The notes under the pieces are model-generated. The model saw only the letters and a list, made by a program, of their open reading frames with translations, did not search any database and was not told where the DNA came from. From positions 3,877 to 36,488 of the forward strand of contig CAYUTF010000024.1 of the NCBI GenBank assembly GCA_964447495.1: a stretch of 32,612 nucleotides of DNA, in the 5' to 3' direction. How positions within the stretch are numbered: the stretch's first letter is position 1; the number at the start of each line of letters is the position of its first letter. The DNA is from an uncultured archaeon. Its GTDB lineage: Archaea; Asgardarchaeota; Lokiarchaeia; Sigyniarchaeales; SOKP01. Below, piece after piece: positions 2,335-31,435 of this stretch. A program made the translations under genes and the position numbers.

Positions 2335-3195
2335 TTATTCTTCTGTTTTTTGGGATGTTAATATAATTTCTTTACATTCGGAAGTAATAAAATGACGGAA
2401 CAAATGTTCATAACCAGCTATTTGTTTTTTTCGCCCATTTTCTAGCCATAAACCAGATGTATATTCAGGTGCTTCTTGTACTTGATCAAGGGTTGTTAAA
2501 ATGAAATCATCATCCGCAATTAATAAACCAAAGGGAATAACACTATCTCCCTCAATAGAATGCACCTTTATTGAGACTTTCAATAACTTTTTAATTTCTT
2601 CTTTTAGCAGATCAAAATATTTAAGTGCAATAACAATTTGTATATTAATTGAAAATTTCTTATTCCATAGCTCATTGAGAATCCATTCATAACCCCCTAG
2701 TTCATCCATTAATAGATCAGGTGTTATAATAAAAAAAATTCTGCGTTCAGAAGAGTTAATTAATTCTTTCACTTTTTTTCTGATTTTATCTCTCGAGCTA
2801 ATAGACCATACGCGGGGCTCAGATTCTTCTTTATCAATCTCAATCTCACTAATGAACTTTTCTAAAATCATAGTATCATTTATTTTTTTCTTGTAATCCT
2901 CGCGAAGTGTCTTAAAGATTTTCTCAATTGGTATTATTTGATAATTCGCTCCTCTTTTTACTGGTTCCTTTTGAATAAATCCTTTCTCCATTAATCTATT
3001 TAAACTGTCATATACTCGTGCACGATCTACTCCCGAATACTTTGCAATATCAGCTGGGCTTAATATCTTGTATTTCGCAAGGGTGAGCAAAACTTTTGAA
3101 TCATTTTTAGTGAAGCCAAGACTTTGTAGTCCCTGCTCAATTTCAGACCGACTAAGCTCAGTATTATGATTAGAAAATGTCAAAAATCGAATCAA
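2335..3195 (-). CDS. TrmB-family transcriptional regulator
   Basis: N-terminal winged HTH 'LQSLGFTKNDSKVLLTL...SPADIAKYSGVDRARVYDSLNRLMEKGFI', followed by an effector domain 'I..LINSSERRIFF...LLIADD'. The start codon (TTG) is uncertain. Confidence 0.88.
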   Translation of the reverse strand: MIRFLTFSNHNTELSRSEIEQGLQSLGFTKNDSKVLLTLAKYKILSPADIAKYSGVDRARVYDSLNRLMEKGFIQKEPVKRGANYQIIPIEKIFKTLREDYKKKINDTMILEKFISEIEIDKEESEPRVWSISSRDKIRKKVKELINSSERRIFFIITPDLLMDELGGYEWILNELWNKKFSINIQIVIALKYFDLLKEEIKKLLKVSIKVHSIEGDSVIPFGLLIADDDFILTTLDQVQEAPEYTSGLWLENGRKKQIAGYEHLFRHFITSECKEIILTSQKTEE

Positions 3196-3780
3196 ATCCC
3201 TATTATTCTACCAATTAAATATCTTATCTTAATAGTAATATTTTAATTTTGTTTTTTCGAAATTTCTTTTTAATGAAAATTCTTCCTTCTAAAAGGTCAT
3301 TAGAATAATAGGTATTTAAAAATTGTTATGATACTTTCTAAATTCTTATTGTGCTTAACTCTAGTTAATCCAAAAGAAGATTAGTATTTTGATTATACTC
3401 ATTTTAAAATGGAGTTGCACAAAACTGATAAACAATTAATCAAATAAAAAAGGTGAAAATTTGAACTTTTTGAAATTTAACTTACTTACTGATTGGTTTA
3501 TTTTCTATCGCTTAGCCTTTAAAAGATGAAAATTTTCAACTTGAGCTTTATATCAAAAGATTAATAAGGATAAAAATTTCAAGTTCTATGGTCAATATTT
3601 CTCATTGGAATGAGGATCTAGCAAAATTCTATTAACCTAGAATTTTTATTTTCTATTTAATAAAGATAAAAAATTTATTTTAATAGTGCTATTTTGTCGG
3701 ACAACGTATTTTTAGCAAATTTCTGATCTAAAAATTTCAATCAATCATATTTCCATAAACAGTCATTTCGAACCATAATA

Positions 3781-3861
3781 TTTATATAATAGAAATGAGT
3801 AGTTATTATTAATTATAAATCTATATTAAAACATACTATTCTTAAAAATATTAAGTGGAGG
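3781..3861 (+). promoter_or_regulatory. Putative TATA box (TTTATATA, 3781-3788) and Shine-Dalgarno (GGAGG, 3857-3861) of the histone gene
   Basis: The TATA matches the archaeal consensus. GGAGG lies 8 nt before ATG 3870. The AT-rich background makes the TATA call uncertain. Confidence 0.4.
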
Positions 3862-3869
3862 AATAAAAA

Positions 3870-4112
3870 ATGGCTAAAAAGAAAGCTGCTCCAGCTAAGA
3901 AAACGAAAGCAGAAAGTTATATCGCAAAAGCACCTATTAGAAGATTGATGAAAAAAGAAGGTGCTGATTTAGTGGCTGCTGAAGCATTAGATAAATTAAT
4001 AGGTTTTCTCGAAAAGAAAGCTGCTGAAGCAACAAAAGATTCGTTAGCAATCTGTAAAAAGGATAAGCGCAAAAGAATTACTGCTGCTGATGTGCGTAAT
4101 GCTACAAGATAG
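3870..4112 (+). CDS. Archaeal histone (HMf-like fold) with a Lys/Ala-rich N-terminal tail
   Basis: Residues 17-80 align without gaps to HMfB (APIRRLMKKEGA.., RKRI..DV..A). The extension is MAKKKAAPAKKTKAES. Confidence 0.93.
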   Translation: MAKKKAAPAKKTKAESYIAKAPIRRLMKKEGADLVAAEALDKLIGFLEKKAAEATKDSLAICKKDKRKRITAADVRNATR

Positions 4113-4144: not shown

Positions 4145-4167
4145 TTTTTTTTCTTATTTATTTTTTT
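4145..4167 (+). terminator. Oligo-T tract, probable archaeal intrinsic terminator of the histone gene
   Basis: TTTTTTTTCTTATTTATTTTTTT about 30 nt after the histone stop, between convergent genes. Confidence 0.5.
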
Positions 4168-4684
4168 AAAAAGTCTCATAAAATTCTTTATTTAAAAATT
4201 TGTGGATATTTGCTTCCAATTTTTTTTTAACTGAATCCATACCTTCTGGTACTACGCGTGTTTTACCCACAATATCAATATAGCCCAGTTCAGCCCCATA
4301 TCTCGGCACAATGTGAATATGGAGATGTTCAATACTTCCTCCCGCAATAATTCCCTGATTAATACCAATATTATATCCTTTTGGATTATAAAGACTATCT
4401 AATAATAATTGAACTCCTTGAATAGTCCGGTTAATATGTACGATCTCTTCTTTAGAAAGGTCTAAAAACGATGTGATATGTCTATTTGGGATTATCATTA
4501 GATGACCAGGATTATATGGATAAAGATTTAAGGAGATGAATAATATTTCATCCTCATAGACTTTAAGAGTTACAACCCGCTCATCATTGTCTTTCACAGC
4601 ACATAATATACATTCTACCTTCGGTCTTGATTTTCCTTGAACATAATCTAATTTTCCTAAAGCTCTGAGCCAATCCTTAAACAT
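4166..4684 (-). CDS. HIT-family nucleotide hydrolase/phosphorylase (Ap4A phosphorylase/FHIT-like)
   Basis: CILC zinc pair, NLYPYNPGHLMIIP, GYNIGINQG..AGGS, and the HIT motif HLHIHIVPR. Confidence 0.9.
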   Translation of the reverse strand: MFKDWLRALGKLDYVQGKSRPKVECILCAVKDNDERVVTLKVYEDEILFISLNLYPYNPGHLMIIPNRHITSFLDLSKEEIVHINRTIQGVQLLLDSLYNPKGYNIGINQGIIAGGSIEHLHIHIVPRYGAELGYIDIVGKTRVVPEGMDSVKKKLEANIHKFLNKEFYETF

Positions 4685-4713: not shown

Positions 4714-5250
4714 TTAAGAATATAAGGTAAAATCAGAATCTGAAGCAAAATCCTTAAATTTTCCAATTTCATCAGGTTTTATTTTTCCAATACAAAATTC
4801 ATTTAAGAGAATATTACTATAAGCGGTACTATTAAACACTTTTCGAATACTAGTAAATAATTGATTTTTTGAAATACTATGATGTGGTTTAAGAAATATT
4901 TGATCACTTGTTTCATAGCGAAAATTTTGTATATCGATACGATAAAATACATCTTTTAGCAGGAATAATTTACGCAATTCCATAAAGAATTTTAATTTTT
5001 TTTTTTCGCCAAGAGACTTCAATGCATCTATATGTTGGGGGGATATCTGAGTTCCTGTACTTACAATTATTATATCTTTATTTTTTGGCTTATATACTAC
5101 CATTAAATGTCCTTTAGAACCAGGAGGGAATAAAAATTGAAAGCCAAATTCGAGCTTTTTTTCTGAATCAGGAATCTGAGTACGAAGCATACCTTCATCT
5201 ATTAAATACTCACGAATTTGGTTTTTTATTTTACTTTCTTCGATAGTCAT
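4714..5250 (-). CDS. DUF2299-like conserved archaeal protein
   Basis: 'IREYLIDEG...FGFQFLFPP...KPKNKD..IVSTGTQISPQH' resembles DUF2299. Co-oriented with the HIT gene (29-nt gap). Confidence 0.65.
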   Translation of the reverse strand: MTIEESKIKNQIREYLIDEGMLRTQIPDSEKKLEFGFQFLFPPGSKGHLMVVYKPKNKDIIIVSTGTQISPQHIDALKSLGEKKKLKFFMELRKLFLLKDVFYRIDIQNFRYETSDQIFLKPHHSISKNQLFTSIRKVFNSTAYSNILLNEFCIGKIKPDEIGKFKDFASDSDFTLYS

Positions 5251-28842: not shown

Positions 28843-29775
28843 ATGAAAAAGCTTGCTTTTATGGGGTTGGATGAAGCAGGTAAAACTAGCATTATAACAG
28901 CAATAACAAGGAAGTTTGGTTTTGAGGAAGAAGTATTTAAGTTGATGCCAACACGAAGAATAGTTCGGGATGCATTCAAATTTTTAGGTGTAGAGTTCAT
29001 AAGGATGGATTTTGGTGGTCAATCCCAATATAGAGAAGAATATCTAAAAAATCCCTCGAAGTATATTTCAGGAACAGATCTCATATACTATGTCATCGAC
29101 GCTCAGAATTTTGATAGATACGTAGAGTCAATTGACTATTTAGACGAAATATTATTATATTTAAAGGAAGAAAGAGAATATCCTCCAATTTGTATATTAT
29201 TTCATAAATTTGATCCTCAAATTATAAAAGATAAGCTGATAAACCAAAGAATTCTAACATTAAAACAAGCTTTAACCCGATATTCACATGATTATACTAT
29301 TTTCTTTTTTGAAACTTCGATTTATGATATAAAATCAATAATGGACGCTTTTTCAAGTGGATTATCGCTCTTATTTGACAATATCCAGATGATTTCCCAA
29401 TTATTTACTGAAATTAGCAAGAATTATAATGCAATACTAATTGCTTTATTTGATGCAAAAGGAATAACCATAGGTGAATATTATCGCCCACATTTACATC
29501 TGCGGGAGAAAATGAGAATCTATGATAAATATTTAGAAGTGCAGAAAAAAATTATTTCTGAAAACAGGACATTATTGGAATTTTCTGATAAATTTGACGA
29601 TGGAGATCGTTATTCAGGAATTGTAGAGGTTCTTAATTTTAGTAATTTAGATTTTTATTTATTGTTCATTGTAGAGGAAAATGCGAAAGATTTAGGGAAG
29701 ACCGTTCAGATTTTGGATAAAATTGAAGCCGCAAAACCCCAAATGGAAAATTTAATACTACAACTCATACAATAA
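28843..29775 (+). CDS. Rag/Gtr-like (Arf-related) small GTPase with C-terminal roadblock/longin-like domain
   Basis: G1 GLDEAGKTS, G2 PT, G3 DFGGQ, G4 HKFD, G5 TSIYD, and about 130-aa C-terminal alpha/beta domain (ILIALFDAKGITIGEY). AGGTGA SD at 28828-28833. Confidence 0.85.
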   Translation: MKKLAFMGLDEAGKTSIITAITRKFGFEEEVFKLMPTRRIVRDAFKFLGVEFIRMDFGGQSQYREEYLKNPSKYISGTDLIYYVIDAQNFDRYVESIDYLDEILLYLKEEREYPPICILFHKFDPQIIKDKLINQRILTLKQALTRYSHDYTIFFFETSIYDIKSIMDAFSSGLSLLFDNIQMISQLFTEISKNYNAILIALFDAKGITIGEYYRPHLHLREKMRIYDKYLEVQKKIISENRTLLEFSDKFDDGDRYSGIVEVLNFSNLDFYLLFIVEENAKDLGKTVQILDKIEAAKPQMENLILQLIQ

Positions 29776-31135: not shown

Positions 31136-31435
31136 TTAGCTATTTGGGATATAAATTTTTAATTTTAAAGTTGAATCCAATAATTTAATTAATCCTTCTT
31201 CTTCATATTGGTATAATAATAATTTTGCAGTAGAGAGGCGTATATCGTATCTTAAAGCAATATCAGATGCTAAAATGGATTTTCTCTTCTTTAAGGATTC
31301 TCTTATTTCTTTCTCAAAAGCTTTAGGGAGGAATGCATCCCGCTCAACTACATTGATTTGTTTCGTTCTACCGTACTTCCTTCTCAAATTGAGAGTTGCT
31401 TTTCTTACTAATATCTTTTCTTCTTTTTCTGACAA
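31136..31435 (-). CDS. rps25e: 30S ribosomal protein eS25 (S25e)-like winged-helix protein
   Basis: Basic N-terminus (RRKYGRTK), then 'KSILASDIALRYDIRLSTAKLLL...EEEGLIKLL......IY', parallel to eS25 K.ITP...aer..I..S.A...L..L...GLIKLV.....IY. Confidence 0.75.
   Translation of the reverse strand: MSEKEEKILVRKATLNLRRKYGRTKQINVVERDAFLPKAFEKEIRESLKKRKSILASDIALRYDIRLSTAKLLLYQYEEEGLIKLLDSTLKLKIYIPNS

Follow-up and report, generated by a model that had tools for sequence, protein, structure and literature searches.

The question raised by this locus is what kind of chromatin protein is encoded by the histone gene (3870..4112, + strand) in the 32,612-nucleotide stretch of archaeal DNA analysed here (the window, from contig CAYUTF010000024.1), since residues at its DNA-binding loops and at its dimer-dimer interface depart from those of canonical archaeal histones. 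The original prediction, made from the window alone, had proposed an H2A-like protein that might be a dimer-only or capstone variant or an obligate heteromer. The gene belongs to an orthologous family of tailed Asgard histones that is already described and very conserved, and the residue-54 side of the change was already noted in 2020 (PMC7776873). We give slightly better than even chances to the reading that its product is an HLoB-type nucleosomal histone with a tail, from a Loki-type Asgard archaeon, which wraps DNA as a dimer and joins mixed assemblies with untailed paralogues.

A tailed histone with reciprocal loop substitutions

The open reading frame (ORF) at 3870..4112 (+) is complete, with 80 codons (3870-4109) and a stop, and was the sole + strand ORF read at this site between 3700 and 4400. 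It begins with the ATG at 3870, and a GGAGGA sequence sits 13 nt before this codon. The translated protein matched Pfam family PF00808 (CBFD_NFYB_HMF) over residues 20-78 with an E value of 3.8e-9 and 37.1 bits, above the curated cutoff of 21.4. Because of this match, the 493 homologues found, the kept gene order, and the kept promoter block and ribosome-binding site, the ORF is a real gene and not a chance reading frame. The original prediction had placed the start at 3918, which is codon 17, and had missed the Lys-rich N-terminal tail. This tail (residues 1-16; 3870..3917, +) is rich in Lys, Ala and Pro, contains six basic and one acidic residue, and has a pI of 10.3. The histone fold (3918..4109, +) comprises, in an AlphaFold2 (AF2) model, helix 1 (residues 20-29), loop L1 (30-36), helix 2 (37-64), loop L2 (65-71) and helix 3 (72-79).

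Positions were numbered after HMfB by a phmmer search against sequences of the Protein Data Bank (PDB), which paired residues 20-80 of the query with residues 5-65 of HMfB, 61 residues each, at an offset of 15 and with no net gap. By this pairing Leu34 (3969..3971, +) occupies the position of HMfB Arg19, changing the RV motif of L1 to LV, and Arg69 (4074..4076, +) occupies that of Thr54, changing the RKT of L2 to RKR and making Arg69 a putative minor-groove residue. The reciprocal substitution at positions 19 and 54 reported in the original prediction is real, and all nine of its residue statements were correct: R19 is replaced by L (Leu34), T54 by R (Arg69), H49 by K (Lys64) and L62 by N (Asn77), and R10 (Arg25), G16 (Gly31), R52 (Arg67), K53 (Lys68) and D59 (Asp74) are retained.

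The dimer-dimer positions of the four-helix bundle, whose roles are taken from PMC6136690 and PMC7776873, extend from the end of helix 2 into helix 3 (4050..4100, +) and are Ile61 (L46 in HMfB), Cys62 (A47), Lys64 (H49; codon 4059-4061, +), Asp74 (D59) and Asn77 (L62; codon 4098-4100, +). Two of the four residues of the set L46/H49/D59/L62 given in PMC6136690 are kept in kind, and the claim that the markers H49 and L62 are non-canonical was borne out. Two of the three stacking pairs listed in the same source, 14-48 and 34-65 of HMfB, become the like-charged pairs Lys-Lys and Lys-Arg in the window histone.

Four features are presented as universal histone signatures in a 2026 survey (PMC13260811): the RV and RKT(V) motifs, the R-T pair and the R-D clamp. 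The window histone lacks the L1 arginine of the RV motif (Leu34-Val35, with Leu in all 76 orthologues described below) and has no RKT(V/I/L) with an R-T pair, the sequence being RKRI, with Arg at the Thr position in 76/76. The R-D clamp, formed by an L2 Arg and an Asp seven residues on, is present by sequence (Arg67 and Asp74, each 76/76), and so is the L1 Gly that allows close stacking (Gly31, 76/76). As aligned, the tailed Asgard family departs from the RV motif, the RKT(V) motif and the R-T pair of that survey.

The substitutions are fixed in a family of Asgard histones

A search of 5.8 billion protein clusters returned 493 matches at an E value of at most 1e-3, and the best 120 of the 493 were inspected. 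These were 74-100% identical to the window histone, the available names were histone or histone-like, and metagenome-assembled genomes (MAGs) of Loki-, Hod-, Hermod-, Thor- and Promethearchaeota were among their sources. The layout of a tail followed by the fold was found in 120/120, as were Leu19 and Arg54. A scan of one genome per species then located 87 loci, and 80 of them were retained; in a hand count of the titles of these 80, 53 belong to Promethearchaeota/-ia, 17 to Hod-, Hermod-, Odin- or Thorarchaeota, nine to an 'uncultured archaeon' and one to a bacterium. Residues were counted in the 76 of these 80 orthologues that were parsed, after L073 and L075 (fold-start motif not parsed) and L077 and L080 (divergent after L2) had been dropped.

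Across the 76 orthologues HMfB positions 2-29 were invariant bar two, and Leu19, Arg54, Asp59, Arg61, Ala63 and Lys48 were each present in all. Helix 3 was nearly invariant (D59, R61, A63, T64, R65). Position 46 was hydrophobic throughout (I 38, V 36, L 2), position 49 was mostly Ala (A 55, T 8, K 5, E 4), the Lys of the window histone being a minority state, and position 62 varied among Asn (43), Ala (15), Lys (13) and Asp (2). The tails were 11-28 residues long (median 14) and consisted of 42% Lys, 27% Ala and 10% Pro. The histone is the best-conserved gene of its neighbourhood, with a median identity of the fold to the window histone of 83% versus medians of 48-78% for ten neighbours. Exactly one histone-fold ORF was present at each locus, and no second histone gene was found in the window or within 6 kb at any of the 80 loci.

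The combination of substitutions had been read as peculiar to the window protein; being fixed in 120/120 of the best-listed clusters and in 76/76 orthologues, it is not. The Leu19/Arg54 pair in the alignments is a lineage trait of the family and of most Asgard relatives and not a one-off, and the window histone is probably a conserved paralogue, single copy per locus, with a promoter of its own.

Some members of the sample were irregular. L071 is a histone of 77% identity in a MAG titled Nanopelagicaceae bacterium, probably a mis-binned contig. The reading frames of L077 and L080 leave the family after L2 in a frameshift-like manner, and no tail start was parsed in L073 and L075; these four may be assembly errors or decayed copies. 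Cys62 (4053-4055, HMfB position 47), next to the dimer-dimer positions, is Cys in 64 and Thr in 12 of the 76.

Relocation of the basic loop residue among Asgard histones

The original prediction had suggested that co-variation of positions 19 and 54 be checked on related histones. Among 1.84 billion cluster representatives, searched without a profile, 95 proteins were found, and these contained 107 histone-fold domains. Most domains had a basic residue at position 54, as the 19/54 pairs I/K (24), L/R (21), L/K (15), M/K (8), V/K (4), I/R (3), F/R (2) and M/R (1). The canonical pair R/T was found in eight, and the mixed states were L/T (3), I/T (2), M/T (1), R/R (1), R/K (1) and R/V (1). Over 97 of the 107 domains, eight combined Arg19 with Thr54, two Arg19 with a basic residue 54, eight a residue other than Arg19 with Thr54, and 79 a residue other than Arg19 with a basic residue 54 (Fisher p = 3.4e-6, relatedness ignored). 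Put differently, Lys or Arg stood at 54 in 79/87 domains without Arg19, and Thr in 8/10 domains with it. The check supports the expected co-variation, loss of the L1 arginine going with gain of a basic residue in L2, at a p value uncorrected for kinship. A tree-aware test on 103 domains, with the trait columns removed, was underpowered: it gave one independent pair on supported branches and six on all branches, and that tree required at least six changes of the R19 state and at least 11 of the T54 state.

A second search, started from an untailed representative of the I/K type (P0159), gave 50 proteins, the named ones being histones of Promethearchaeota or Lokiarchaeota. These untailed Asgard relatives had Ile19 in 50/50, Lys54 in 46/50 by hand count, and His49 in most. 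That the basic residue has moved out of L1 and into L2 is, on these alignments, a general trait of these Asgard histones, including those with the canonical dimer-dimer signature; because a hydrophobic residue 19 with Lys54 is general in untailed His49 histones, the loop swap appears independent of the interface change. His49 was absent in 26 of the 27 domains with a hydrophobic residue 19 and Arg54. The Arg54 class also had long N-terminal extensions, with a median of 25 residues and at least 15 residues in 21/26, versus a median of nine in both the Lys54 and the Thr54 class. Within this sample, Arg54, a residue other than His49 and a long tail are linked traits.

Helix 1 shows a further difference. 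Arg24-Arg25 (3939-3944) correspond to HMfB positions 9 and 10, untailed Asgard relatives have mostly Ala, Ser or Gly at position 10, and in five printed untailed Asgard sequences the helix-1 Arg stands one residue earlier. It seems that a second DNA-contact residue has shifted in this lineage.

Unusual architectures were seen among the more distant relatives. P0122, P0128, P0134, P0144 and P0157 are Leu19/Arg54 proteins with much longer tails rich in Lys, Ala, Pro, Thr and Ser; in P0122 (145 residues) the tail of about 75 residues reaches a eukaryote-like length. Natural histone doublets were found in P0132 and P0154 (also P0170, P0176 and P0215). In P0132 and P0154 a His49-type fold comes first, and the fold after it, without His49, is the one most like the window protein; this order may be a 'Rosetta-stone' hint of pairing between the two classes. 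P0121 (374 residues), P0131 (203 residues) and P0167 (204 residues) have four or two tandem folds followed by a Cys-rich CxxC...CxxC tail, and P0123 (649 residues) has a histone fold near its C-terminus, preceded by a long unrelated region.

Predicted fold and oligomeric state

The AF2 model, built on a 68-row alignment, had a mean pLDDT of 80.9 and showed three helices with a long central one, the chain ending one residue past helix 3. Residues 1-19 were non-helical, and the mean pLDDT was 53 in the first ten-residue block and 67 in the second. Foldseek comparison with the PDB gave as leading matches HPhA 1ku5 (TM score 0.81 on the target), HHoB 9qv5/9qv6, H4 chains and HMfA/B; TM scores on archaeal histone targets were 0.76-0.83, and all E values were above 1e-3, as expected for a fold of about 60 residues.

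Prediction of a complex of four copies gave a fold score of 0.89, and the best of three controls gave 0.00. The score mark used for homodimers is reached by 20/30 proteins whose solved structure is a pair of one chain and by 1/23 solved as single chains; these counts apply roughly, the run having used its own alignment and four copies. Runs agreed in at least 92% of the dimer contacts, and the partner pLDDT was at least 88. The predicted interface takes in residues 34-36 and 68-72, so that L1 of one chain faces L2 of its partner, an arrangement familiar from known histones. The usual handshake homodimer is thus predicted confidently, although histone dimers have already been solved and the pass may reflect likeness to known structures. 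The only confident interface listed in the four-copy run was that between copies 3 and 4, which is the handshake; residues 61, 64, 65, 77, 78 and 80, which it did not list, are merely uncertain there. The run, made without DNA and without an HMfB or HHoB control, speaks neither for nor against tetramerisation.

Relation to described histones

Reports of tailed Asgard histones go back to 2017-2018 (PMC6136690). A preprint of July 2026 (10.64898/2026.07.02.735847) recognises three classes of Loki histone, HLoA without a tail, HLoB with one and the divergent HLoC, and reports from L. ossiferum and M. peptidiphilum that the tailed histones belong to the proteins of highest abundance in the cell, lie on the nucleoid and are methylated at tail lysines. 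Its best AlphaFold3 assembly on DNA contains six untailed HLoA.3a and two tailed HLoB.2. The window histone resembles the HLoB/HMpB proteins of Lokiarchaeum ossiferum and Margulisarchaeum peptidiphilum, which are Asgard histones in which a disordered N-terminal tail, rich in Lys, precedes a single fold of the archaeal type. Its own tail is of this HLoB type, 6/16 residues being Lys or Arg, with low pLDDT and no helix. The sequence RKRVTAADV of HLoB.1 compares with RKRITAADV in the window histone, and the tail stretch AKKKTPAKK of HLoB.2 with AKKKAAPAKK.

The words sprocket, R19, T54, tetramer and capstone were looked for in the main text of the preprint and not found; its supplements and the alignment in its Extended Data Fig. 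5 may show these residues. Diversification of residue 54, which interacts with residue 19, was described in 2020 as almost confined to Asgard archaea (PMC7776873). No other statement relevant to the 19/54 swap was found in the literature searched. That the change is reciprocal, and that it is linked with the tail and with the loss of His49, appears not to be spelled out in searchable text. The original prediction had held that its proposal would fail if the combination were common and already characterised: it is common, and the family is characterised in part, the abundance, nucleoid localisation and tail modifications of the tailed class having been published. DNA wrapping and oligomerisation of the class, unlike these three, are absent from the published record.

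The canonical archaeal histones HMfB, HPhA, HTkA and HHoB (PDB 1a7w/5t5k, 1ku5, 9qv5-7) share with the window histone a fold of the same length, Gly16, the R52-D59 clamp and a basic helix 1. They have Arg19, Thr54, His49 and Leu62 and no tail, whereas the window histone has Leu19, Arg54, Lys49, Asn62 and a tail of 16 residues. The untailed 'GAEIVS ... RKKVT' histones (P0159 and 49 others) come by name from the same source lineages and show the same relocation of the basic residue, but they keep His49, have Lys54 in place of Arg54 and Ala, Ser or Gly at position 10, and are without a long tail.

The likeness to H2A lies in L2, where R77 of H2A, at the L2 end of helix 2, anchors the minor groove at the L1-L2 site; the source gives R42 and R77 as H2A's two minor-groove anchors (PMC9496766). 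The assignment of R77 to the Thr54 column, and the H2A sequence string quoted for it, are those of the original prediction. The wider description as H2A-like did not hold. H2A also keeps the L1 arginine R42 (PMC9496766), pairs with H2B, which gives none, and has a docking domain and a C-terminal extension, whereas the window histone has only the L2-side Arg and no docking extension. Its best sequence and structure matches were archaeal histones, H4 and viral H4-H3 doublets, and H2A chains were absent both from the 60 listed sequence matches and from the listed structure matches.

Ranked first by sequence in the PDB, ahead of archaeal histones, were the H4-H3 doublets of Marseilleviridae (7n8n_A and 9cvt_C; PMC8357426), with E values of 2.2e-7 and 3.5e-7 over two domains. 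Aligned with Leu34 and Arg69, the H3-like half of the doublet shows Val and Arg, and the doublets were solved as DNA-wrapping particles. They differ from the window histone in being a fused giant-virus protein with an H3-like N-terminal helix.

Mode of assembly and alternative explanations

If the window histone is a nucleosomal histone of the HLoB type, each dimer would bind about 30 bp through two paired L1-L2 sites and the pair of first helices, as other histones do. Each L1-L2 site would carry one basic minor-groove side chain, supplied by L2 (Arg69) of one subunit, with Leu34 in L1 of the other packing beneath it. By analogy with H2A R77 (PMC9496766), we infer that Arg69 takes the minor-groove role of the lost L1 arginine. 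The loop geometry and close packing would still be possible because the R52-D59 clamp and Gly16 are kept. The four-helix bundle would lack His49 and Leu62. Since polar or small residues occupy positions 49 and 62 and vary within the family, the dimer-dimer contact is probably not canonical, the contact between like dimers would probably not be relied on, and a weak interface between like dimers is plausible. Mixed nucleosome-like assemblies with untailed His49 paralogues would be the most likely outcome, with the tails pointing outward as sites of lysine modification.

Several observations weigh against this reading, and part of them would suit an ordinary hypernucleosome former like HMfB or HHoB, in which the 19/54 and 49/62 substitutions would be neutral or compensated and the tail would be the one special feature; we regard that alternative as rather unlikely, though one to be taken seriously. 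The preprint modelled an all-HLoB.2 hypernucleosome by molecular dynamics (MD) on an HHoB template, and the figure legend does not mention a collapse (10.64898/2026.07.02.735847). The near-invariance of helix 3 is what a used interface would show, and would also fit a conserved protein-protein interface of the family's own. Gly16, R52-D59, a hydrophobic residue 46 and the basic residues of helix 1 are kept, and the tailed class is abundant enough to coat a genome (10.64898/2026.07.02.735847). The minor-groove placement of Arg69 is putative, and none of the PDB matches is a solved archaeal histone with swapped loops, HHoB, HMfA/B and HPhA all being R19/T54. The association of positions 19 and 54 could rest on very few events. 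The comparison with HLoB isoforms covers two short peptides, and the C-terminus of HLoB.1 differs past the nine shared residues. What speaks against an ordinary hypernucleosome is that His49 and Leu62, which belong to the dimer-dimer criteria of PMC6136690, are absent from the window histone and variable in the family, that two stacking pairs have become like-charged, and that the top-scoring assembly of the preprint is a mixed one of six untailed and two tailed histones.

The capstone or dimer-only variant of the original prediction, which would bind DNA or the end of a stack without extending it and so limit oligomer length, is in our view improbable. Non-canonical residues at 49 and 62 would suit it, and Ala or Glu at 49 in 59/76 orthologues agrees, for the majority of the family, with the marker of a hydrophobic or negative residue (PMC7776873), but Lys49 of the window histone itself does not. 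The published capstones Msp_0383 and Msm_1260 of Methanobacteriales are likewise archaeal paralogues without His49, in a long-kept syntenic group; they differ in having a negative or hydrophobic residue 49 and no tail and in being single, lowly expressed paralogues, and their instability comes from MD (PMC7776873). Tailed Loki histones are highly abundant (10.64898/2026.07.02.735847), which argues against a minor capping role, and a capstone needs at least one working face, whereas nothing separates the two faces of a symmetric homodimer. Still less probable is an obligate heterodimer, in which the tailed fold would need another paralogue as its partner, in the way that H2A needs H2B. A review argues that tails can tip histones towards heterodimer formation (PMC10919886), and the doublets P0132 and P0154, which fuse a His49-type fold to one most like the window histone, keep heterotypic pairing conceivable. 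The confident homodimer prediction (0.89 versus 0.00, a pass that may reflect likeness to solved dimers) and the missing partner gene in the window and within 6 kb at 80 loci nevertheless weakly disfavour this part of the original prediction, and with an Arg19/Thr54 partner one L1-L2 site would receive two arginines and the other none. We give almost no credence to a sequence-specific regulator of the NF-Y/HAP3 type that is not a chromatin protein. NCBI gives some homologues the name 'NFYB/HAP3 family transcription factor subunit' and a TrmB-family regulator is the conserved divergent neighbour, but the name stems from the shared Pfam family PF00808, the window histone has no extra domain, its closest structures are nucleosomal histones, and the tailed class is reported to be highly abundant and nucleoid-wide (10.64898/2026.07.02.735847).

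Significance

Among prokaryotic proteins, the tailed histones of Asgard archaea are at present the closest parallel to those of eukaryotes. The present analysis adds a residue-level handle on their assembly on DNA, in that the basic residue of the L1-L2 site has moved to L2 throughout the tailed class, which has also dropped the canonical His49 contact. It also makes an abundant Asgard class an exception to the RV and RKT motifs described as universal (PMC13260811). Should the loop change alter DNA-sequence preference or wrapping, or the interface change enforce mixed assemblies, this would bear on the start of paralogue specialisation; if neither is the case, the gene is one more orthologue of a described family.

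A bolder interpretation is that the tailed histones form a separate Asgard class of dimers that do not polymerise themselves but dock on tetramers or stacks of untailed His49 histones, set their size and display modifiable tails. It is suggested because Leu19, Arg54, a residue other than His49 and the Lys-rich tail travel together and are frozen across the family, and we hold it to be unlikely. If true, it would amount to a division of labour like that of H2A-H2B versus H3-H4 that arose inside Asgard archaea, possibly independently of eukaryotes.

Expression signals and genomic neighbourhood

The region upstream of the histone gene contains a conserved block (3767..3807, +) with a TATA-like sequence, TTTATATAA, at 3781-3789 and GTAGTTA about 18 nt downstream, a putative promoter and transcript start. 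The sequence TTTATATAATAGAA was found in 65/76 upstream regions (72/76 by a degenerate pattern), with a median start at -87 from the ATG and at -89 in the window, and GTAGT[TA]A was found in 69/76, at a median of -69. Because of its conservation and position, the block is probably a dedicated promoter and transcript start region. The Shine-Dalgarno-like GGAGGA (3857..3862, +) was present in 76/76 upstream regions, at -12 to -16. Downstream, a T-rich tract (4145..4167, +) in the 53-nt spacer ahead of the convergent HIT gene is by its composition a candidate archaeal terminator, and may possibly act as such. The divergent intergenic region between the TrmB-like gene and the histone gene (3196-3869) is AT-rich and, at 674 nt, unusually long; its final 160 nt were compared across loci.

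The neighbours of the histone gene are widely kept. A TrmB-family winged-helix regulator (2335..3195, - strand; PF01978, E 6.4e-17) is the divergent neighbour and stands beside the histone in 73/80 loci. The convergent neighbours are a HIT-family protein (4166-4684, -; PF01230, E 3.8e-19), found in 76/80 loci, and a DUF2299 protein (4714-5250, -; PF10061, E 1e-16), found in 75/80. No functional link between the histone and the TrmB, HIT and DUF2299 genes is claimed, and they are given as context only. A Ras-family small GTPase (1644-2201, -; PF00071, E 1.9e-37), two genes from the histone, is kept in 71/80 loci. Further away lie a Gtr1/RagA-type GTPase (28843-29775, +; PF04670, E 3.5e-25) and ribosomal protein S25e (31136-31435, -). 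These eukaryote-like signature genes, the Ras-like and Gtr1/RagA GTPases and S25e, fit an Asgard origin of the window.

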